NCBI GenBank assembly: GCA_021730945.1
Contig: JAKFYH010000005.1
Span: forward strand, 73,014 to 137,013
Direction of reading: 5' to 3'
Source of the DNA: Acidobacteriota bacterium
Lineage (GTDB): Bacteria > Acidobacteriota > Vicinamibacteria > Vicinamibacterales > UBA2999
DNA length: 64,000 nucleotides
Under the pieces are notes generated by a model that was not told the origin of the DNA, made no database searches, and worked only from the letters and a program-made list of their open reading frames with translations. The position numbers and the translations under genes are program-made. Shown one piece after another: positions 1,260-34,174 of the stretch (position 1 is the stretch's first letter; each line of letters begins with the position of its first letter).

Positions 1260-2138
1260 TTAGTGATCGATCCTGAGCCGGCCCGGCACGTAGAAGTAGC
1301 CGACCAGGCGGTAGTCACACAGGTTCGCCCGCTCCAGTTCTCGCGCCGGCATCGCCGCACCGCTGGCATCGCAGGCCTGTGGCGGCAGCGGCCCGTGCTT
1401 GTGCGTCCAGTGCGTACCGTCGAGCCGGAGGAAGTGAAAGTCGGAGGCGTTGACGGCCAGCGCGACGTGCCAGCCGCCAGTCGCGCCCGGGGGCACCGTG
1501 ATCGGGTCGGCCGCCGGGATCAGCCCGTCAGGGGCAAGAATGGCGGCCCATTGGGTATAGCTGGTTATGGTTGACGGTCGGCTCGCCGGTGTTGCGCCCA
1601 CCGACATGCCGCCGAAGCGGCACCACACGTCCTTGACGGCATAGTTGAAGCAGTTGCTCGACTCGCAGATCTCAAATGGGAGCCAGCTCGCCGCGTCAGC
1701 GACCATGCCGCACGCGCAGGCGGTTGCCAGCGACGTGTGGTGATTGGCGGCATGACCGCACCGCCGCCAGTCGGCCTTGGCGCCGCCCGCTGCCGGTTTC
1801 TTGAGGGCGGCACTCTCAGTGACCGCGGGGAGCTTGGCCACAATCGGATCGATCATGGCGCGAAGGCGGTCGACGCCGGAATGACTGCCACGGTGAGTGA
1901 CGGCATACGTGCGGAAGACGTAGGCCCACTCGTGGCGCTCGCCTTCAGTGCGGCTGAACAGCACATCACTGCCGGCCGGCGCCAGATTGACCAGGCACTT
2001 CCAGCACAGGTCGATCGGCACGGCCGAGACCGGCAGGTCATTGATGACCGACCACAGGCGATCACTCGTGGCCGGGTCGACCGACGTCGCCCGATTTGGC
2101 CGCCCCGAATACTTCAGTTCAATCAGAGTGCTGGCCAT
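1260..2138 (-). CDS. Cys-rich hypothetical protein; C-terminal half has papain/transglutaminase-like Cys...His...Asp spacing
   Basis: Start ATG 2138 (MASTLIELKYS) is preceded by GGTGGA-actg. It overlaps the SagB stop (2119-2121) by 20 nt. SNCFNYA (C-x-x-[FY]-A) is followed 61 residues later by GGWHVALAV and then SDFHFLRLDGTHWTHKHG. GC3 is high like the neighbours. The longer track ORF (to 2225) would overlap SagB by more than 100 nt. Confidence 0.6.
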   Translation of the reverse strand: MASTLIELKYSGRPNRATSVDPATSDRLWSVINDLPVSAVPIDLCWKCLVNLAPAGSDVLFSRTEGERHEWAYVFRTYAVTHRGSHSGVDRLRAMIDPIVAKLPAVTESAALKKPAAGGAKADWRRCGHAANHHTSLATACACGMVADAASWLPFEICESSNCFNYAVKDVWCRFGGMSVGATPASRPSTITSYTQWAAILAPDGLIPAADPITVPPGATGGWHVALAVNASDFHFLRLDGTHWTHKHGPLPPQACDASGAAMPARELERANLCDYRLVGYFYVPGRLRIDH

Positions 2139-3216
2139 CAGTCCACCAATCGAGATGCGGGAGCCCCTGGTCCCTGCCGGCGGCTGGGGGCCGCCCGCAA
2201 CCGGCGACATAGACCACGCCTTCACTCACGGCGTCGATGCCGAGCGCCGCGTCAATCGCGTCTTCGTCGATGGCGTGCGTGCAAAACGGCGCCAGGCCGC
2301 GTTCGGTCGCCAGCAAGTAGAAGGTCTGGCACACATGGCCGGCTTCGATCAGCACGTTGCGATAGGCCTTCGCCACCGGATACCGCCACATCGTCCGTTC
2401 AAACACGGCGGTGAAGAGGACAACGAGCGGGGCGTGTCCGTACCAGGGTTGAGCCTGGATGAATTGGTTGATGAGTGGCCGGCCGCCGCCACGGCGCAGG
2501 CGCGCCAGGACGTGGCCGGCCGCATCGTAGTGATAGAGACCGCGCGCCAGGCCCTGGACACGGTTCGCGATCACATAGGCCTCGATCGGATGGCAGATGC
2601 CGCCCGACGGCGAGGTCTTGAGCACGACTCGGCGGTTGGCCGGGTCGCGCGCCCACCGTTGCACACCGACACTGAGCCGGAGCAGGTCGGCCAGGTCGTC
2701 CAGCGCGAGGGGCGCGCGTGAGAACTGGCGCCAGGTGCGCCGGCGTTGGAGCAGTTGCTCCAGCGGCGACGGTGATTGCGGACGGGGCAAGGGAATACGG
2801 ACCGACGCGGTACGGACGGCCGTTGGCGCCGGCGGCGGCGTGGTCTGGGCCTTGCGGGCCAGCCGCCGTTCGCCTTCCGATACGTCGGCGTTGAAGCGAG
2901 TGCCACGGGTTGAGAAGTGAAAGAAACCGGCGGCGGGATCCCATTCGCCCCAGGGATCGGGCGGCTCGGCCGCTGGGCGGGATCGCGCGGAGGCCAGGGT
3001 CGCCGCGCTCAGGGCGCGCAGGATGGCGCGGGTGGCCCCCACCGGGAGGGCCACCTCGCGCGCGACTTCAGAGGCGAGCGCCCAGCGATCGAGCGACTGC
3101 ACCACGCGGAGGATATCAGGGGTAAGCGGCACGGTCTTGCCCGTCCGGTAGTTGGAGATCAGGCACGCGCCGTCTTTCCAGTAGCCCACGAGGTGTGGGC
3201 TCCGGCGAAACCTCAC
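2119..3216 (-). CDS. SagB/ThcOx-type FMN-dependent dehydrogenase (nitroreductase superfamily) with an N-terminal winged-helix-like extension
   Basis: RRRTWRQF...LSVGVQRW...LKTSPSGGICHPIEAYVIA...GLYHYDAAGHVL...VLFTAVFERTMWRYPVAKAYRNVLIEAGHVCQTFYL is the SagB-type dehydrogenase domain pattern. The preferred start is GTG 3216, forming a GTGA overlap with the stop of the upstream small ORF. ATG 3264 in the track would overlap that ORF by 52 nt. Confidence 0.85.
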   Translation of the reverse strand: MRFRRSPHLVGYWKDGACLISNYRTGKTVPLTPDILRVVQSLDRWALASEVAREVALPVGATRAILRALSAATLASARSRPAAEPPDPWGEWDPAAGFFHFSTRGTRFNADVSEGERRLARKAQTTPPPAPTAVRTASVRIPLPRPQSPSPLEQLLQRRRTWRQFSRAPLALDDLADLLRLSVGVQRWARDPANRRVVLKTSPSGGICHPIEAYVIANRVQGLARGLYHYDAAGHVLARLRRGGGRPLINQFIQAQPWYGHAPLVVLFTAVFERTMWRYPVAKAYRNVLIEAGHVCQTFYLLATERGLAPFCTHAIDEDAIDAALGIDAVSEGVVYVAGCGRPPAAGRDQGLPHLDWWTDGQHSD

Positions 3217-3521
3217 TTCTTGCCCTTGGCCTTCTTGCCCATCTTCTTGGTGCCCGGCGGCCACGCCTTGATGGCGTCCTGGTCCACGGTGTAGAACCCG
3301 TAGTACGGGTTGGGGCAGTAGACGCCGAGGGCGGCCTGACGCACGCCGTTCAGGGCCTGGATGATGGCGTCAAGGCGCTGCCGTTCCACCGGTGTCGCGC
3401 TGGCATGCAGCGAGGCCTTGACATGCTGAGCCAGTTGCGTCGTCTTGCGGATCTCGGCGGTCAATCCGCTCGTGCTGAACGCAAAACTCACCGGGCTACT
3501 ATCCTTCTTCGCTTTCGCCAT
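3213..3521 (-). CDS. 102-aa small protein with Lys-rich termini, no recognised family; candidate substrate or partner of the SagB-like enzyme
   Basis: ATG 3521 is preceded by GGAGG (3530-3526) with a 4-nt spacer. Stop TGA 3215-3213 overlaps the GTG of the SagB gene. Sequence is MAKAKKDSS...GVYCPNPYYGFYTVDQDAIKAWPPGTKKMGKKAKGKK. Confidence 0.65.
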   Translation of the reverse strand: MAKAKKDSSPVSFAFSTSGLTAEIRKTTQLAQHVKASLHASATPVERQRLDAIIQALNGVRQAALGVYCPNPYYGFYTVDQDAIKAWPPGTKKMGKKAKGKK

Positions 3522-3542
3522 CTGTCCTCCAGGGGTGTGGAA

Positions 3543-6041
3543 TCAGTTAATCAGTTGCAACTGCCGAATCAAGTCTTGGAACGCCGGATCGGCGCGGAGC
3601 GGATCGAAGCGGGGATCGACCCCGATCCAGATCACCGAGGGCAGGCGCGCGGCCATGGCCTCGAGCAGCAATGCCATCGCGCGATCGCGCCGCCCTCGCG
3701 CCAGCTCAACGAAGGCGAGTTGGTCGGCGGCCAGCCGGCGGTCGGCGTACGCGCGTTCGAGCTGCACCATCAGTTGCTCGGCCTCGTCCGTGCGTCCGGC
3801 CAGGTAGAGAATGCGGGCGAGCTCGGCTTGCACGGGTGGCACGTCGCGATTGGGACCGGAGCGGATCATCGCGATGGCCTCGTCGTGCCGGCCGGCCGCC
3901 GAGAGGAACCGGCCAAGGCCGAGATGAGCGATGGCCGCGCTGGGATCACGAGCCAGTAACTGGCTGGACTGGTCGATCGCTTCGTCGAACCGGCGCAGGT
4001 AGTACAGGCAGATCGCCACCGCGCTGTGGCGCGAGGCGTTGAGTGGTTCCAACTGCAGGGCGGTCCGCGACTCGGCCAATGCCGCTTCGAGGCGATTGTT
4101 CGACATCAGTAATTGCGCGTAGAGGCCGCGGGTGTTGGCATCGCTCGGATTGAGGTCAATGGCGCGCCGGAAGTGCTGCTCGGCGCCGCGCCAGTCCCAA
4201 TAGCCGGTGGCCCGTACCCATCCCAGTACGGCTTCGGCATATCCCAGGCCCGGGTCGAGCGTCCGCGCGCGCTCGGCGCGGCGCTCCGCTTCGGCAAGGG
4301 CGTCGGCAATCTCGATCTCGCGGTACGAGGTGCCGAGCAATCCAGTGATGTAGCCCAGGGCGGCCTGGGCCTGGGCAAACTCGGGTGCGAGGGTCACGGC
4401 CTTGAGGAACTGGTCGCGCGCCTGCCGGGTCGGGTTGGGTGACAGGCCGTAGTATTCCTGCCAGCCCCTGAAGTAGGCCTCGAGCGCTTCACTCGAAGGT
4501 TGCGAGCTGGCTCGACGAGCTTCGGCGGTGATGGGAGAGCGCAGCGCGCCGGCCACCTCAGCGGTGATCCGCCGCTCGGTCTCGAACAGGGCGTCGAGGG
4601 TGGATTCGTAGATCGCGCTCCAGAGCACGGTGCCGGCGCCGGCCTGGACCACCCGGACGGACACCGACAACCCTCGCCCCGCGGTCGGACGCACGCTGCC
4701 TTCGACCAGCGCGTCGACGCCGATGTCGCGGGCGACTTCCTCGTGCTGACGCAGCGTCCGGTCGCTGCGCGAGCGCGTCGTCACGACGCGCAGCCGGGTC
4801 TGCTGGCCCAGGTCGGTAGTGATGAGGTCGGCGAGGCCCAGCCCCACGTGGCTGAGCGACTGGTCGGACGACAGGTCGTCGAATGGGAAGACGGCGACTG
4901 CACTGGCCGCCACCACGGGTGCGGCCGGCGCGAGCAATCGCCACCCCAGTCCAGCGACAGCCATGCCAGCGATCGCGGCGAAGGCCACCGTCAGCCAGAT
5001 ACCGGCGCGCGGGTGACTGACGGCGGGAGGGACCACCAGCGCCGATAGAGCGTCAGCCAGATCCGTCGCCGAGCGATACCGCGACGCCGGGTCGTCGCTG
5101 GTCGCCCGCTCGACCACGGTGATGAATGCCGCCGGCAAGTCCCCGCGAAGGTCTGGCAGCCGGATGCGCGACTGCTGGCGATGACCGTCGACGATCTCCG
5201 GCACGCTGTTGCCGCGCACCGGAAACCGGCCGGACACAAGGTAAAACAGCAAGACACCAAGCGCATAGATGTCGGATTGAATACTCGCCGGCCGGCCTTC
5301 GAACAGTTCGGGCGCCAGATAGAGCGGAGTACCGGCGCTGCGCGGGCGGGCGTGCGCGGCGAGATCGTGGCCGAGGCCGAAATCCATCAGCACGTAACGG
5401 CCGCCGGCCTCGCGCATGACGTTCTGCGCCTTGATGTCCCGGTGCACGAGTCCGGCGCCATGCACCGCGGTCAAGGCCCGGCACATGTCAATGCCGACCA
5501 GCGCGGCCTCGGTCGCACTGAGCGTGCCGCGGCGCTGGACGATCGTCTCGAGCGTCTCGCCGGACACCAGTTCCATCCACAGGCCGACTCGTCCGTCCAG
5601 TTGCTCCGTGCCGTGGACGGTCACCACGTTGGGATGCCGAATACGCGCCAGCAGGCGCGCTTCGCTGAGTACGCCCTCTGGCGCGCTGGCGCCGGCTGAG
5701 GGCTTCAGGAACTTGAGCGCGACCTGACGGTCGAGCCGGGTATCGATCGCGCGAAAGACCTCGCCCTGGTTGCCGCCGCCCAGCCGTTCGAGCAGCGCGA
5801 AGTGGCCCCAGTGCGGGACCGCTCCGGTGCTGGGACTGCGGACCACGCCGGCGGCCGGGCCGTCGGCGCCTGGGTCGGTCTGGTGCAGGCCGCTTAGTTG
5901 CGACACCAGGCGCAGGTTGGTGATCAGGGCCAGGTCGTCCTCAGAAACTGATGCGGCTTCGAGCGCGTCCCAGTCGATCGGCTCGCCGTCAGAAACGGCG
6001 GTCGCGACCGCCAGCCACCGGGCTTCGTCAGCGGCCTTCAT
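3543..6041 (-). CDS. Membrane Ser/Thr protein kinase with extracytoplasmic TolB-N-like and TPR repeat region
   Basis: Kinase motifs are present: GGGNQGEVFRA, VALKFL, HRDIKAQNV, DFGL, APE. One TM segment (IWLTVAFAAIAGMAVAGLGW), then AVFPFDDLSSDQS... and multiple TPR-like repeats. ATG 6041 overlaps the ECF sigma stop (6028-6030) by 14 nt. Confidence 0.9.
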   Translation of the reverse strand: MKAADEARWLAVATAVSDGEPIDWDALEAASVSEDDLALITNLRLVSQLSGLHQTDPGADGPAAGVVRSPSTGAVPHWGHFALLERLGGGNQGEVFRAIDTRLDRQVALKFLKPSAGASAPEGVLSEARLLARIRHPNVVTVHGTEQLDGRVGLWMELVSGETLETIVQRRGTLSATEAALVGIDMCRALTAVHGAGLVHRDIKAQNVMREAGGRYVLMDFGLGHDLAAHARPRSAGTPLYLAPELFEGRPASIQSDIYALGVLLFYLVSGRFPVRGNSVPEIVDGHRQQSRIRLPDLRGDLPAAFITVVERATSDDPASRYRSATDLADALSALVVPPAVSHPRAGIWLTVAFAAIAGMAVAGLGWRLLAPAAPVVAASAVAVFPFDDLSSDQSLSHVGLGLADLITTDLGQQTRLRVVTTRSRSDRTLRQHEEVARDIGVDALVEGSVRPTAGRGLSVSVRVVQAGAGTVLWSAIYESTLDALFETERRITAEVAGALRSPITAEARRASSQPSSEALEAYFRGWQEYYGLSPNPTRQARDQFLKAVTLAPEFAQAQAALGYITGLLGTSYREIEIADALAEAERRAERARTLDPGLGYAEAVLGWVRATGYWDWRGAEQHFRRAIDLNPSDANTRGLYAQLLMSNNRLEAALAESRTALQLEPLNASRHSAVAICLYYLRRFDEAIDQSSQLLARDPSAAIAHLGLGRFLSAAGRHDEAIAMIRSGPNRDVPPVQAELARILYLAGRTDEAEQLMVQLERAYADRRLAADQLAFVELARGRRDRAMALLLEAMAARLPSVIWIGVDPRFDPLRADPAFQDLIRQLQLIN

Positions 6042-6633
6042 GCATCACCTTCGCAATCTTCAACAACGCGCGGCTGATCATCATGCGGACGGCATCGGGG
6101 CTGGACCGGTCCATCGATGCCGCGATCTGCGCGTACGAGCAACCGAACTCAATCCGCGAGACCACCGCCTCGCGCTCGTCTGGGGCGAGTTGCGCCATGG
6201 CGGCCTCGTAGCGGTCGAGCGCCTGGCGGCCGATGACTTCTTCGATCGGCGACGGCTGCGGGTCCGGGAAGCTGGTGTCGAGCGGATCGTGCGGCGCGCG
6301 CGAGGCGCGCCGGACTTCGTCGATCAGCCGGTTCTGCACCGCCCGGCGCAAGTAGGCGTGAAAGCCGCCGTCGCGGGTGGGCTCGAAGGTGTCGATGTGA
6401 CGCAGCGTCTGCATCACTGACTCCTGGACCAGGTCATCGGTGTCGCGCATCTGGCGGGCCCACCGGGGCAGCCGGCCGCGCGCCCATCGTGTGAGCGGCG
6501 CCAGGTAGCGGCCGAGCAAGCTGTCGAGCGCAGCTTCGTCGCCGTCGCGGGCACGGGCGAGGAGATCGCGAGTGGACTCGACGCCGGCGGCGTGATCGGC
6601 GCGGCCTTGGGGCCTGGGTGGCGGACGATCCAT
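6028..6633 (-). CDS. ECF-type RNA polymerase sigma factor (kinase-linked type)
   Basis: Region 2 (DDLVQESVMQTLRHIDTFEP...FHAYLRRAVQNRLIDEVRR) and region 4 (REAVVSRIEFGCSYAQIAASMDRSSPDAVRMMISRALLKIA). ATG at 6633. Confidence 0.85.
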   Translation of the reverse strand: MDRPPPRPQGRADHAAGVESTRDLLARARDGDEAALDSLLGRYLAPLTRWARGRLPRWARQMRDTDDLVQESVMQTLRHIDTFEPTRDGGFHAYLRRAVQNRLIDEVRRASRAPHDPLDTSFPDPQPSPIEEVIGRQALDRYEAAMAQLAPDEREAVVSRIEFGCSYAQIAASMDRSSPDAVRMMISRALLKIAKVMHEGR

Positions 6634-6660
6634 GCGGCTGTGGTGCGCATCCTAACCGAT

Positions 6661-6870
6661 TCACGGTCTGAGCGGCGGCCGGGCAATCCGAAGTGCAAGT
6701 TGCACCCGTCCCTCCACCTGCATCTTCTTGCACGCGGCAGCGACGTGCTTCTTCACGGTGCGCTCGGAAATGCCCAGCGCCTCCGCGATGCGCCGGTTAC
6801 GCCAGCCGCGCGAGACGGCCAGCGCGACCCGGCGTTCCTGCGGCGTGAGCGTCTCCGGCGCCTCGCTCAT
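6661..6870 (-). CDS. Stand-alone LuxR/GerE-type HTH protein (69 aa)
   Basis: MSEAPETLTPQERRVALAVSRGWRNRRIAEALGISERTVKKHVAAACKKMQV is a GerE-type HTH. ATG 6870 forms an ATGA overlap with the stop of the upstream sigma-like gene. The N-terminal extension to 7047 in the track lies in a different frame from the sigma-like gene's 3' end. Confidence 0.7.
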   Translation of the reverse strand: MSEAPETLTPQERRVALAVSRGWRNRRIAEALGISERTVKKHVAAACKKMQVEGRVQLALRIARPPLRP

Positions 6871-7721
6871 CGCGACGCCTCGGCCTCGAGCGGCATGCCG
6901 ATCCAGCCGGTGACGGCGGCGCGCGTCACGCCGTCGCGCTCGATCGCGCGGCGCAGGTCGCGCAACAGCTGCTCGCAGTGACGGTAGAGCGGCTTGGCCG
7001 CCTGGGCGGTTTGCTCGGCCAGTGTTGCGAGGGAAATGCCGTGGCAATAGCGGTGGATCAGCAACTGCCGGTCGGCCGGTGCCAGCCCGTCCAGCGCGCG
7101 GCGTAACGCGGCCAGGGCGCGCCGGCGCTCGCGGGCCGCCTCAGCCTCGGCCTGCAGATCGACTGCGGGATCAGATTGGTAGTGGTCCACGCACTCGGCC
7201 GCCACGAACGTACGCCGCGACCGGGCCTTGAGCCGTTGGCAGAGCTCCCGCAACCACGAACGGTCTGTTTCGGGATAGGCGGCCAGAAACCACTGCTCGG
7301 CTTCGCTCATCGTGAAGCCGTCGCGCCGGATGAGCCGGTCCAGCTCGATGCCGAGCGGACCATGCTGGCGGGCAACCACGCTCGGACGCCACCGGCCCCA
7401 GTCGCGAATACGCTGATCGAGCAGCAGGTTGTGCGCCACGCTGGTGAGGTAGGTTTCGATCGACGCCTGTCCCCGGAAGTGCCGTAACAGGCGGCCCTGG
7501 CGGGCTGAGACCTTGACCCACAACTCCGACCGCAGGTCTTCAGCCTGGTCGTCGGTGAGGCGAAACCGCCGCGCGGTGCGAGTGGCTGCCGCTTCCACGG
7601 CCGGACCCCAGAGCTCGAATAGAGCCCGTGGATGCAGGCAGACTTCGGAACGGGACGGTCGCCGACGTGCTGGCGGCGGGACCTGAACCAACGGCGCAGA
7701 CCTGAGCACGGCTGAAGCCAA
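6867..7721 (-). CDS. Divergent sigma-70/ECF-like protein with an insertion between regions 2 and 4
   Basis: TTG start 7721 is preceded by GGAGG-tttcg. Region-2-like DDQAEDLRSELWVKV...ETYLTSVAHNLLLDQRIRDW. Region-4-like LAPADRQLLIHRYCHGISLATLAEQTAQAAKPLYRHCEQLLRDLRRAI. About 60 aa lie between them. Confidence 0.6.
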   Translation of the reverse strand: MASAVLRSAPLVQVPPPARRRPSRSEVCLHPRALFELWGPAVEAAATRTARRFRLTDDQAEDLRSELWVKVSARQGRLLRHFRGQASIETYLTSVAHNLLLDQRIRDWGRWRPSVVARQHGPLGIELDRLIRRDGFTMSEAEQWFLAAYPETDRSWLRELCQRLKARSRRTFVAAECVDHYQSDPAVDLQAEAEAARERRRALAALRRALDGLAPADRQLLIHRYCHGISLATLAEQTAQAAKPLYRHCEQLLRDLRRAIERDGVTRAAVTGWIGMPLEAEASR

Positions 7722-11648: not shown

Positions 11649-12986
11649 CCCGGCGCGGGAGGCGAGGGCGGCGGCCTGGGCCCTGGCTTCGTCGGCACAA
11701 GTCGCCGGATCCCAACGAGTTGGCCGAAAGTCGTCCACCAGCACCTCGCCATCGACGACCGTGGTCCGGACGTCGGTGCCGCGGGCGGAATAGACGAGTG
11801 TCGAGTAGGGATCGCGAGTGGTCAGAAACTGCGGCCGGTCGCGGTCGATCAGCAGGAAGTCGGCGCGCTTGCCGGTCTCGATGCTGCCCAGTTCGTGGTC
11901 AAGGCCGATCGCGCGCGCGCCCTCGCGCGTCGCCATCCACAACGCGTCTCGCGCCGTCAGTGCGCCGGGGCCCTGGCGCACCGACTGCAGCACGGCCGCC
12001 AGGCGCATCTCCTCGAACATATCCAGGTGGTTGTTGCAGGCGGCGCCGTCGGCGCCGAGCGACACCGAGATGCCTTTCGCCCGCATCTCAACCACCGGCG
12101 CCAGGCCGGAGCCGAGCTTCAGATTCGACCCCGGGCAGTGCAGCACCTTGACCTCGCGCTCGGCCATGACCGCCTGTTCGCGATCATCCACCCACACGCA
12201 GTGGGCCAGGCACAGGCGGGGCGACGCCAGGCCGGTATGCGCGAGGTAGTCGATGTTCGACCGCCCGGTGCGCTGGCGAATCAGGGCGACCTCGTCACGA
12301 TTCTCCGACGCGTGGGTGTGGACCACCAGGCCATGTTCCTGCGACAGCGACGCCACCCCCTCCAGCAAGGACTGCGAGCACGAGACCGCGAAGCGCGGCG
12401 CGAAGGCGGCCCGGAGCCGGCCGTTGGCGCGGCCGTGCCAGCGGCGGGCCAGGGCCACGCTCTCGTCGAGTGAGTGCGCGGTTCGCTCCAGCAAGCGCGC
12501 CGGCACCGCATCGTCGGCGTCCATCATGCATTTGCCGACCACGGCACGCAGGCCCAGGGGCTCGAGTGCGGCAAACACCGCGTCGGTGTCGTGCACGGTC
12601 TCCATGGTCAAGACGGTGGTGGTGCCGCTCAGCAACAGCTCGGAGGCGGCTTGCCGCGCCGCGGCCGCCAACGAGGCGGGGGTGTGGGCCGCTTCCATCG
12701 GCCAGATCCGCGTCTTGAGCCAGTCGAGCAACGCCAGGTCGTCGGCGTAGCCGCGAAACAGCGTCTGGCACAAATGGATGTGGGTCTGGATGAAGCCGGG
12801 CACGAGATACGCCCCGCGCGCATGAATGACGCGATCGGCGCGTTCGTGATCCGCCACCACGCCGACGGAGACCAGGCGGCCGTCGCGCACCAGCACGTCA
12901 CCCTCGAGCACCGTGAAGGTGTCGTTCATGGTGACGATGGTCGCGCCGCGAATGATTAACGAAGAGCCTTGAGGTTCGGGAACCAT
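11643..12986 (-). CDS. Amidohydrolase-superfamily deaminase (MtaD / TRZ-ATZ / guanine-deaminase-like)
   Basis: IIRGATIVTMND...VLVRDGRLVSVG...YLVPGFIQTHIHLCQTLFRGYADD...VHTHASEN...HCVWV...SLGADGAACNN are amidohydrolase metal-binding motifs. Substrate is not assignable by eye. Confidence 0.8.
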   Translation of the reverse strand: MVPEPQGSSLIIRGATIVTMNDTFTVLEGDVLVRDGRLVSVGVVADHERADRVIHARGAYLVPGFIQTHIHLCQTLFRGYADDLALLDWLKTRIWPMEAAHTPASLAAAARQAASELLLSGTTTVLTMETVHDTDAVFAALEPLGLRAVVGKCMMDADDAVPARLLERTAHSLDESVALARRWHGRANGRLRAAFAPRFAVSCSQSLLEGVASLSQEHGLVVHTHASENRDEVALIRQRTGRSNIDYLAHTGLASPRLCLAHCVWVDDREQAVMAEREVKVLHCPGSNLKLGSGLAPVVEMRAKGISVSLGADGAACNNHLDMFEEMRLAAVLQSVRQGPGALTARDALWMATREGARAIGLDHELGSIETGKRADFLLIDRDRPQFLTTRDPYSTLVYSARGTDVRTTVVDGEVLVDDFRPTRWDPATCADEARAQAAALASRAGF

Positions 12987-33854: not shown

Positions 33855-33929
33855 GCGGGAATAACTCAGTGGTAGAGTGCGACCTTGCCAAGGTCGAAGT
33901 CGCGGGTTCGAATCCCGTTTCCCGCTCCA
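33855..33929 (+). tRNA. tRNA-Gly (anticodon GCC)
   Basis: Manual cloverleaf. Acceptor GCGGGAA/TTCCCGC, D stem ACTC/GAGT, anticodon stem CGACC/GGTCG with loop TTGCCAA, T arm GCGGG-TTCGAAT-CCCGT, encoded CCA. Confidence 0.9.

Positions 33930-34100: not shown

Positions 34101-34174
<74 letters not shown>

Follow-up and report, generated by a model that had tools for sequence, protein, structure and literature searches.

A conserved single-cysteine small protein encoded with a YcaO-less SagB-family dehydrogenase in uncultured Acidobacteriota is a candidate substrate or partner of a two-enzyme module

A contig of an Acidobacteriota bacterium (GenBank assembly GCA_021730945.1, contig JAKFYH010000005.1) raises the question of what a small protein does when its gene lies between the gene of a receptor kinase and that of a SagB-family dehydrogenase, and whether this protein could be the substrate of the enzyme encoded beside it. 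We analysed a stretch of 64,000 nucleotides (nt) of this contig (positions 73,014 to 137,013 of the forward strand), which we call the window and in which the small-protein gene occupies positions 3213 to 3521 of the minus strand. A preliminary description of the window, made from the letters and their translations, had put the product forward as a possible substrate. The reading that we favour, and to which we give about half of our confidence on the grounds of sequence comparison and structure prediction, is that the small protein would be a dedicated substrate or an obligate partner of a two-enzyme module, with the chemistry taking place at a Cys-Pro loop.

The gene and its ribosome-binding site are as follows:

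3213..3521, minus strand: small-protein gene, 102 amino acids (aa) plus stop (open reading frame (ORF) and translation, homolog alignments, AlphaFold2 model, dN/dS)
3526..3530, minus strand: Shine-Dalgarno sequence GGAGG, 4 nt 5' of the small-protein ATG (read from the sequence)

The ORF starts with ATG and stops with TGA (3215-3213), and the 102-aa product, its termini (MAKAKKDSS at the N terminus and GTKKMGKKAKGKK at the C terminus) and its sole Cys (residue 69, inside GVYCPNPYYGFYTVDQ) match the preliminary description exactly. The ribosome-binding site reported there is the GGAGG listed above, and Shine-Dalgarno-like sequences also precede the homologs in almost all other lineages, the one in L015 being weak (loci are referred to by L numbers and family members by P numbers). 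Only 21 nt separate the stop of the kinase gene from the small-protein ATG. At the other end of the gene, the TGA and a GTG (3216-3214), the putative start of the SagB-like enzyme, overlap in the sequence GTGA, and this is the stop/start coupling to the enzyme gene that had been claimed. Public gene calls on identical contigs place the enzyme start at GTG 3189, 27 nt beyond the overlapping GTG. The peptide encoded between both candidate starts, (V)RFRRSPHLV, is kept as protein in L015 (EFRRSRFLV), L019 (LFRRAPGLV), L020 (ITFRRSRHLV) and L021 (TFRRSPHLV). Further, L021 offers no downstream start, leaving the overlapping GTG as the sole start option for its enzyme, and in L020 a GTG comes straight after the TAA stop of the small gene. 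Because the inter-start peptide is conserved, L021 has a single start and L020 has the TAA-GTG junction, the comparison across loci supports the coupling of the two genes. As regards annotation of the window at 3189-3216 (minus strand), the comparison favours GTG 3216, adding the conserved N-terminal peptide VRFRRSPHL to the enzyme, and the start at GTG 3189 is likely a systematic start-site misannotation.

A word-indexed search with the small protein returned seven close homologs at 62-100% identity, and HMMER, run over all 1.84 billion cluster representatives, returned 11 clusters at E <= 1e-3, with identity down to 28%. Among six close orthologs, the ratio of nonsynonymous to synonymous substitution (dN/dS) was ~0.32 overall, ~0.5 in both tails and 0.12 at residues 67-82. 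These ratios and the 11 homolog clusters mark the ORF as a real gene and not a chance reading frame; its family is genuine but rare and without a name, and is confined to a few uncultured Acidobacteriota lineages.

In the alignment of 16 members, which range from 78 to 114 aa in length, Met1, Glu46, Cys69, Pro70 and Asp80 are invariant and Ala2, Asn71 and Thr78 are nearly so, and the family motif reads C-P-[NQ]-x ... [TS]-[VI]-D. A single Cys is present in 15 of the 16 members, and no Ser or Thr is invariant family-wide. Most members have C-P-x-P, the second Pro not being invariant (CPNA and CPNG are also present), and 4 to 27 residues follow Asp80, depending on the member. Homologs with a conserved Cys-containing patch were thus found, as the preliminary description would have it; of the aromatic patch that it had picked out, the Cys-Pro stands, along with Asp80, Glu46 and the nearly invariant Asn71 and Thr78, but the Tyr/Phe richness belongs to one clade only, and distant members have CPNPMYNILTID, CPNGMHNLFTID or CPQPFFGFYTVD instead. 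Similarly, the Lys-rich termini noted earlier are present in the window copy (3 Lys in the first 9 residues and 8 in the last 20) but vary across the family, in which Lys/Arg-rich tails of 2 to 30 residues occur at either end, are missing from 4 of the 16 members and in others have moved to the opposite end.

The small protein and its homologs had no consistent family match in Pfam, NCBIfam or PADLOC, in agreement with the earlier failure to place the protein in any family, and it matched none of the NCBIfam peptide families. No NHLP or Nif11 model was matched at E <= 10 when 7 and 16 members were compared with NCBIfam, nor was Nif11 when the 16 members were compared with Pfam, very weak matches being ones that the HMMER filters may hide; the Gly-Gly motif is absent from the window sequence, so that the lack of such a leader and motif, as first described, was borne out. 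Weak matches to DibA, FrmR, CsoZ and Uperin each occurred in one or two members and were taken as chance. Public sources hold no functional name for the small protein, the sole label being 'hypothetical protein', and a literature search returned no account of the small-protein family or of its cassette.

Next, an AlphaFold2 model of the small protein was built with the 16-sequence alignment. The model has a mean predicted local distance difference test score (pLDDT) of 80.8, rising to 93-97 across residues 21-60, and predicts a first strand (residues 10-15), two helices (18-36 and 44-66), a loop (67-74) and a second strand (75-80), with disordered tails. Cys69-Pro70-Asn71-Pro72 is placed in the loop between helix 2 and the second strand, and the strand after the Cys lies packed on the N-terminal one, giving a compact beta-alpha-alpha-beta arrangement. 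The residues of the paired strands tend to co-vary, with FAF accompanying GFYTV in one clade and VAI/LLV accompanying ILTI/IVTV in the other, which fits the predicted strand pairing. Glu46 appears to complete a T-x-x-E helix-capping box, and its invariance is probably structural. Neither the sequence nor the model pointed to a known relative: a PDB sequence-profile search with the small protein gave nothing meaningful, and Foldseek against the PDB gave generic helical-hairpin matches only (E >= 0.07). Overall, the predicted small protein looks like a folded mini-domain displaying the Cys-Pro and not like a floppy leader-plus-core peptide.

The two genes downstream of the small-protein gene are:

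2119..3216, minus strand: SagB-family flavin mononucleotide (FMN) dehydrogenase, 365 aa (PF00881, TIGR03605 and PDB profile matches); its GTG start overlaps the small-gene TGA
1260..2138, minus strand: orphan Cys/His-rich protein, 292 aa (gene calls, homolog alignment); overlaps the enzyme stop by 20 nt

The enzyme has a nitroreductase-fold domain (PF00881, 5.6e-20) and passes the SagB-domain model TIGR03605 over residues 172-342 with 125.2 bits against a cutoff of 78.4, and it is thus a member of the SagB family. Its nearest solved relatives in a PDB search were 3eo7 and the cyanobactin oxidase CyaGox. The W-R-Y of the enzyme aligns with W-K-Y of CyaGox and by coordinates also corresponds to positions 201-202 of McbC, and the enzyme of L019 carries WKY. 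In McbC, the Lys-Tyr pair at 201-202 abstracts the C-alpha proton in azoline oxidation (PMC6395948). The N-terminal ~100 aa of the enzyme comprise conserved strands (YWK.G.C...N[YF]RT) followed by a region with weak winged-helix matches (IclR, MarR, KdgR and TFE, E 0.007-0.3). Such a layout would weakly suggest a recognition element for peptides that are made on the ribosome and modified after translation (RiPPs), of the ThcOx or TfxB/TfxC kind; a RiPP recognition element (RRE), or peptide clamp, precedes the oxidase domain in ThcOx (PMC5108345) and likewise in TfxB/TfxC (bioRxiv 10.64898/2025.12.02.691738).

The orphan protein has 11 homologs, about ten conserved Cys residues and the conserved motifs CWKC, RRCxH, CxCG, SNC[FY]N[FY]A, GWHVALA and HFLRLD, and it gave no match in Pfam, PDB or PADLOC. 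C163 is invariant, H224 and D240 are nearly so, and the three have the order and spacing of a papain-, transglutaminase- or NAT-like triad. Its AlphaFold2 model is poor (pLDDT 61.7), also around C163, and the papain-like matches that Foldseek returned for it, to the C39 domain of PCAT1, NlpC/P60 MepS and FMDV Lpro, were all non-significant (E >= 0.46).

Upstream of the small-protein gene lie four regulatory genes:

3543..6041, minus strand: receptor Ser/Thr kinase, 832 aa (Pfam: Hanks kinase domain, TolB_N/FlgO-like region, tetratricopeptide repeat (TPR) region)
6028..6633, minus strand: extracytoplasmic function (ECF)-type sigma factor, 201 aa (Sigma70_r2, r4_2 and ECF matches); overlaps the kinase start
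about 6661-6870, minus strand: short GerE/LuxR-type helix-turn-helix (HTH) protein (Pfam)
6867-7721, minus strand: 284-aa protein with weak sigma-70 region 2/4 matches (Pfam)

Read along the minus strand, the cassette of the window therefore comprises the 284-aa sigma-like gene, the GerE-type HTH gene, the ECF sigma gene, the kinase-TPR gene, the small-protein gene, the SagB-like gene and the orphan 292-aa gene, and it lies between hrcA-grpE-dnaJ-prmA and DUF1028-rsmE. The GC content of the window is uniform and its base composition has no foreign signature, so there is no sign of recent transfer of the cassette. The order recurs in L001, L002, L017, L020, L021, L014 and L015 and in a JGI contig carrying P0017, in which the small proteins are 30-76% identical to the window copy. 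All homologs with a readable context share the cassette and none lies in a ribosomal or nucleoid operon, the unrelated contexts that the preliminary description had named as telling against its proposal. Small gene and next gene are 0 to 68 nt apart or overlap: the junction is GTGA in the window clade and L021, TAA-GTG in L020, TAG-TTG in L023 and 68 nt long in L014. Each cassette holds one nitroreductase-fold gene among its called genes as judged by Pfam. No YcaO annotation was found by Pfam among the called genes of L001, L002, L006, L014 (20 kb), L020, L021 and L023, and no transporter or recognised peptidase is annotated in the window cassette or the recurring loci.

The kinase has one hydrophobic segment, between the kinase domain and the TolB_N/FlgO-like region, as read by eye from the translation. 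Its gene is kept 5' of the small gene in L001, L002, L014, L015, L017, L020, L021 and L023, with gaps of about 14-47 nt across loci. The sigma and kinase genes overlap by 14 nt and no anti-sigma factor gene accompanies them, which is the arrangement of a kinase-associated ECF module; it is kept in eight other loci, and these two genes are the most constant neighbours of the small gene. Pairs of ECF sigma factors and Ser/Thr kinases are known (PMC7826278, PMC13147305), including kinase-associated ECF groups without anti-sigma factors (PMC7826278). Both of the genes further upstream are present in L002, L006, L021 and L023, and the sigma-like gene also in L001, L014 and L017. Counting the ECF sigma factor, the 284-aa protein and the HTH protein, a single small operon comes with as many as three regulators of sigma-like or HTH type.

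Two departures from the common order bear on which enzyme the small protein belongs with. In L022 and L023 (members P0012 and P0011), a homolog of the orphan protein lies directly 3' of the small gene in place of the SagB-like gene (BLASTP E = 1e-24; small gene then orphan gene at L022 287-544 and L023 5699-6235), and both contigs end before any SagB-like gene could show. The pairing with a SagB-like gene that the preliminary description stressed thus applies to the window, where the two genes adjoin, but not to these two loci, where the orphan gene follows directly. Because of this order, the partner of the small protein is the cassette and not necessarily the SagB-like enzyme alone, and the orphan protein may count as much as the SagB-like enzyme for small-protein function. 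In L019, conversely, an enzyme ~40% identical to that of the window occurs with a convergent kinase-TPR gene, and both the orphan protein and a family member are missing. In the small-gene position, L019 has a 69-aa ORF (5753-5962; MAKLDH...SCVLMSGWGTACIFSK) with a GGAGG site, a GTGA overlap with the enzyme start, a helical N terminus and two C-terminal Cys residues. This ORF had no detectable homology to the small-protein family (hhalign probability 1%) and could represent a second substrate family for the same enzyme clade.

Some of the loci look eroded or rearranged. L006 has a kinase gene cut to a TPR-only ORF and a truncated third gene (2334-4785 and 6185-6739), and in L014 the third protein is a 101-aa C-terminal fragment alone (11981-12286); both cassettes look degraded. 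In L020, a 44-aa ORF 3' of the third gene (5731-5865) echoes the N terminus of the third protein (MADWLTELRFSGRPNP...) and may be a partial duplication. A wider locus search with the enzyme as query returned one GTDB species genome only (a Vicinamibacterales metagenome-assembled genome, L017) and two JGI metagenome contigs, and no viral contig was found with this query. In a separate Rfam scan, the 64-kb window yielded two tRNA genes only, at 33855-33926 and 34101-34171 (plus strand), distant from the cassette, and a search for promoters and terminators gave no informative signal.

What leads us to infer a substrate or obligate-partner role is that the small protein is conserved, selection acts on the Cys-Pro loop, the cassette is constant, the genes are tightly spaced and the catalytic Tyr of the enzyme is kept. 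The purifying selection peaks at residues 67-82 (0.12 versus 0.32 overall), and L019 provides a second pairing, in which the 40%-identical enzyme occurs with another small ORF in the same position. The favoured reading would then run as follows. A folded cytoplasmic mini-protein of ~80 core residues, with its function centred on the invariant Cys-Pro in the loop that joins helix 2 to the last strand, would be produced alongside two enzymes, the genes of all three being closely spaced or overlapping. The first of these would be a YcaO-less SagB-family FMN dehydrogenase with a putative N-terminal winged-helix, RRE-like domain, and the second an orphan Cys/His-rich protein, maybe with a papain-like Cys-His-Asp triad. 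The helical hairpin of the small protein would serve as the recognition element and the Cys-Pro loop as the reaction site, and the whole module would be turned on by the adjacent pair of receptor Ser/Thr kinase and ECF sigma factor.

Several observations weigh against this reading. The predicted fold is compact, with the post-Cys strand paired to the N-terminal strand, unlike a flexible core peptide, and whereas many RiPP families have variable cores, the motif region is here the most conserved part. No transporter, recognised peptidase or immunity gene is found in the cassette. The small genes of L022 and L023 do not adjoin a SagB-like gene, and these loci may lack one, their contigs stopping too early to show it. 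Because there is no cyclodehydratase, the canonical azoline substrate of a SagB enzyme cannot form. Further, the RRE assignment draws on N-terminal matches at E 0.007-0.3, and the papain-like view of the orphan protein on motifs and non-significant Foldseek matches.

Comparison with known systems places the cassette near, and outside, several of them. Like the azoline dehydrogenases SagB, McbC and ThcOx/CyaGox, the enzyme has a nitroreductase fold and passes the SagB-domain model; the catalytic Lys-Tyr position of CyaGox and McbC is aligned, with Arg-Tyr in its place; and, as in ThcOx, there is an extra N-terminal domain, here maybe a peptide-binding winged helix, with a small ORF directly upstream of the gene. 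The systems for thiazole/oxazole-modified microcins (TOMMs), or linear azole-containing peptides, differ from the cassette in that no YcaO cyclodehydratase or E1-like partner is annotated in it at any locus, and in that the small protein, at 78-114 aa and predicted to be folded, has one Cys in place of a Cys/Ser/Thr-rich core. A TOMM or linear azole-containing peptide system was thus rejected, since there is no YcaO among the cassette genes and 15 of 16 members have a single Cys.

A closer parallel is found in the tiarins, for which it has been proposed that the SagB-family proteins TfxB/TfxC introduce a modification other than an azole; the precursor lies just upstream with a strong Shine-Dalgarno sequence and YcaO is merely accessory (bioRxiv 10.64898/2025.12.02.691738). 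The cassette shares with these trifolitoxin-like systems a SagB-family enzyme with a putative recognition domain and a small upstream ORF with a Shine-Dalgarno sequence, and it has no YcaO. Tiarin clusters encode a TfxB/TfxC pair and precursors of 23-65 aa with a conserved Gln motif, and many include tRNA synthetase, GNAT or export genes (bioRxiv 10.64898/2025.12.02.691738); in contrast, the cassette encodes one SagB-family enzyme only, and its small protein is longer, predicted to be folded and marked by Cys-Pro, with an orphan partner and sigma and kinase genes besides. With one nitroreductase-fold gene per cassette and no conserved Gln, we set it apart from the tiarins, a separation made on published cluster features.

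Among named families, TIGR04511 ('putative peptide maturation dehydrogenase') scored best for the enzyme, with 211.2 bits from a match of the catalytic domain to positions 109-368 of the 380 in the model. This is below the cutoff of 240 and leaves the N-terminal 108 model positions unmatched, and full membership was rejected on these two grounds; a further difference is that the neighbour here is a kinase and not a cyclase. By the family description, genes of TIGR04511 members lie beside one for a small peptide and one for a large protein of signalling type with TPRs, and the latter would be paralleled by the kinase-TPR gene here. Lastly, the kinase-associated ECF sigma factors (ECF43-like; PMC7826278, PMC13147305) resemble the cassette in that the ECF gene overlaps that of a transmembrane Hanks Ser/Thr kinase without an anti-sigma factor, a likeness that covers the regulatory half of the cassette and not the small protein. 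In the papers searched, no description of the small protein, the SagB-like enzyme and the orphan protein as a regulon of such pairs was found.

The constancy of the sigma and kinase genes raises a different reading, in which the small protein is a regulatory or accessory part of the ECF sigma-kinase pathway and is not processed by the enzymes: it could be acted on by the kinase, modulate the sigma factor or serve as an adaptor that senses redox state and reports through its Cys. We consider this unlikely, though it carries real weight, in that the small gene is always directly 3' of the kinase gene, kinase-associated ECF groups can do without anti-sigma factors (PMC7826278), the protein is predicted to be folded and the cassette has no export or immunity genes. 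What such a role does not account for is that no Ser or Thr is invariant, the invariant residues being Cys-Pro, Asp80 and the helix-cap Glu, and that the tight coupling is to the downstream enzyme genes; moreover, L019 keeps enzyme, small ORF and kinase, yet its small ORF is unrelated, and the sigma factor retains an acidic DTDD stretch (read by eye). A classical RiPP precursor is a further alternative, in which a helical leader of ~66 residues would be cleaved, perhaps by the 292-aa protein, and a modified peptide starting near Cys69 would be secreted as an antibiotic or signal. The SagB-family enzyme beside a small ORF with a strong Shine-Dalgarno sequence, the possible Cys-His-Asp triad of the orphan protein (C163, H224, D240) with its scattered papain-like Foldseek matches and the analogous small ORF of L019 would all suit such a precursor. 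We nevertheless judge it improbable: none of those Foldseek matches is significant (E >= 0.46), transporter and immunity genes are lacking from the cassette, no cleavage motif can be recognised in the protein, the putative core is better conserved than any other part and forms part of the predicted fold, with 4 to 27 residues past Asp80, and no NHLP or Nif11 model was matched.

The small protein could also be a Cys carrier or ligand binder (of a TusA-like persulfide, a metal or haem) that shuttles a group to or from the flavoenzyme and is not permanently modified. A mostly C-P-x-P motif, a single invariant Cys in an exposed loop of a small folded protein and a redox enzyme as partner are in keeping with this role, which is slightly less probable again in our estimation because no member matches the TusA Pfam model at E <= 10 and no sulfur-transfer genes are conserved in the cassette. 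In TusA, the CPxP begins a helix of a beta-alpha-beta-alpha-beta-beta fold, and the predicted beta-alpha-alpha-loop(CPNP)-beta topology differs from this; the second Pro is variable (CPNA, CPNG), and the weak FrmR and CsoZ matches, in one member each, are chance-like. Homology to TusA was rejected on the Pfam result, the topology and the variable Pro. Finally, the Lys-rich N and C termini of the window copy might suggest a generic basic protein, associated with nucleoid or ribosome, that adjoins the enzyme by accident. This is very improbable, given that the basic tails are missing in 4 of 16 members and end-switched in others, that selection falls on the Cys loop and not on the tails and that homologs with a context all lie in the cassette, ribosomal and nucleoid operons holding none of them. 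As identities of the small protein we accordingly rejected a precursor of either the NHLP/Nif11 or the TOMM kind, a homolog of TusA and a basic protein of nucleoid or ribosome.

Within the favoured reading of a substrate or partner, a more specific chemistry can be sketched by analogy, and we offer it as a speculation that is more likely wrong than right by a wide measure: the YcaO-less SagB-type dehydrogenase might act directly on the Cys-Pro of the folded mini-protein, after which the orphan protein would act. The Cys or the proline ring would be dehydrogenated across its alpha-beta bond, in a manner comparable to the C-alpha deprotonation and C-beta hydride transfer of McbC.

Nearly all of the present understanding of SagB-family dehydrogenases is of enzymes that oxidise azolines and need a YcaO partner, and only recently have trifolitoxin-like systems suggested other chemistry for these enzymes. 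The cassette is a clean, minimal and conserved case in which a YcaO-less SagB-like enzyme occurs with a single-Cys protein predicted to be folded, an orphan protein and what may be a kinase/ECF sigma switch, and in outline it seems to be built like a small module of RiPP-like or protein-modifying type, in which the substrate candidate, folded and with a single Cys, is unusual. Should the small protein prove to be an accessory regulator only, the finding would be a modest annotation of a lineage-restricted operon. If it is a substrate, the cassette would represent a modification chemistry and a protein family that are both new, in soil Acidobacteriota that have been little studied. If direct dehydrogenation of the Cys-Pro were true, Vicinamibacterales-like Acidobacteriota would have a protein-derived modification, cofactor or signal of a new class, made when a receptor kinase and an ECF sigma factor command it.

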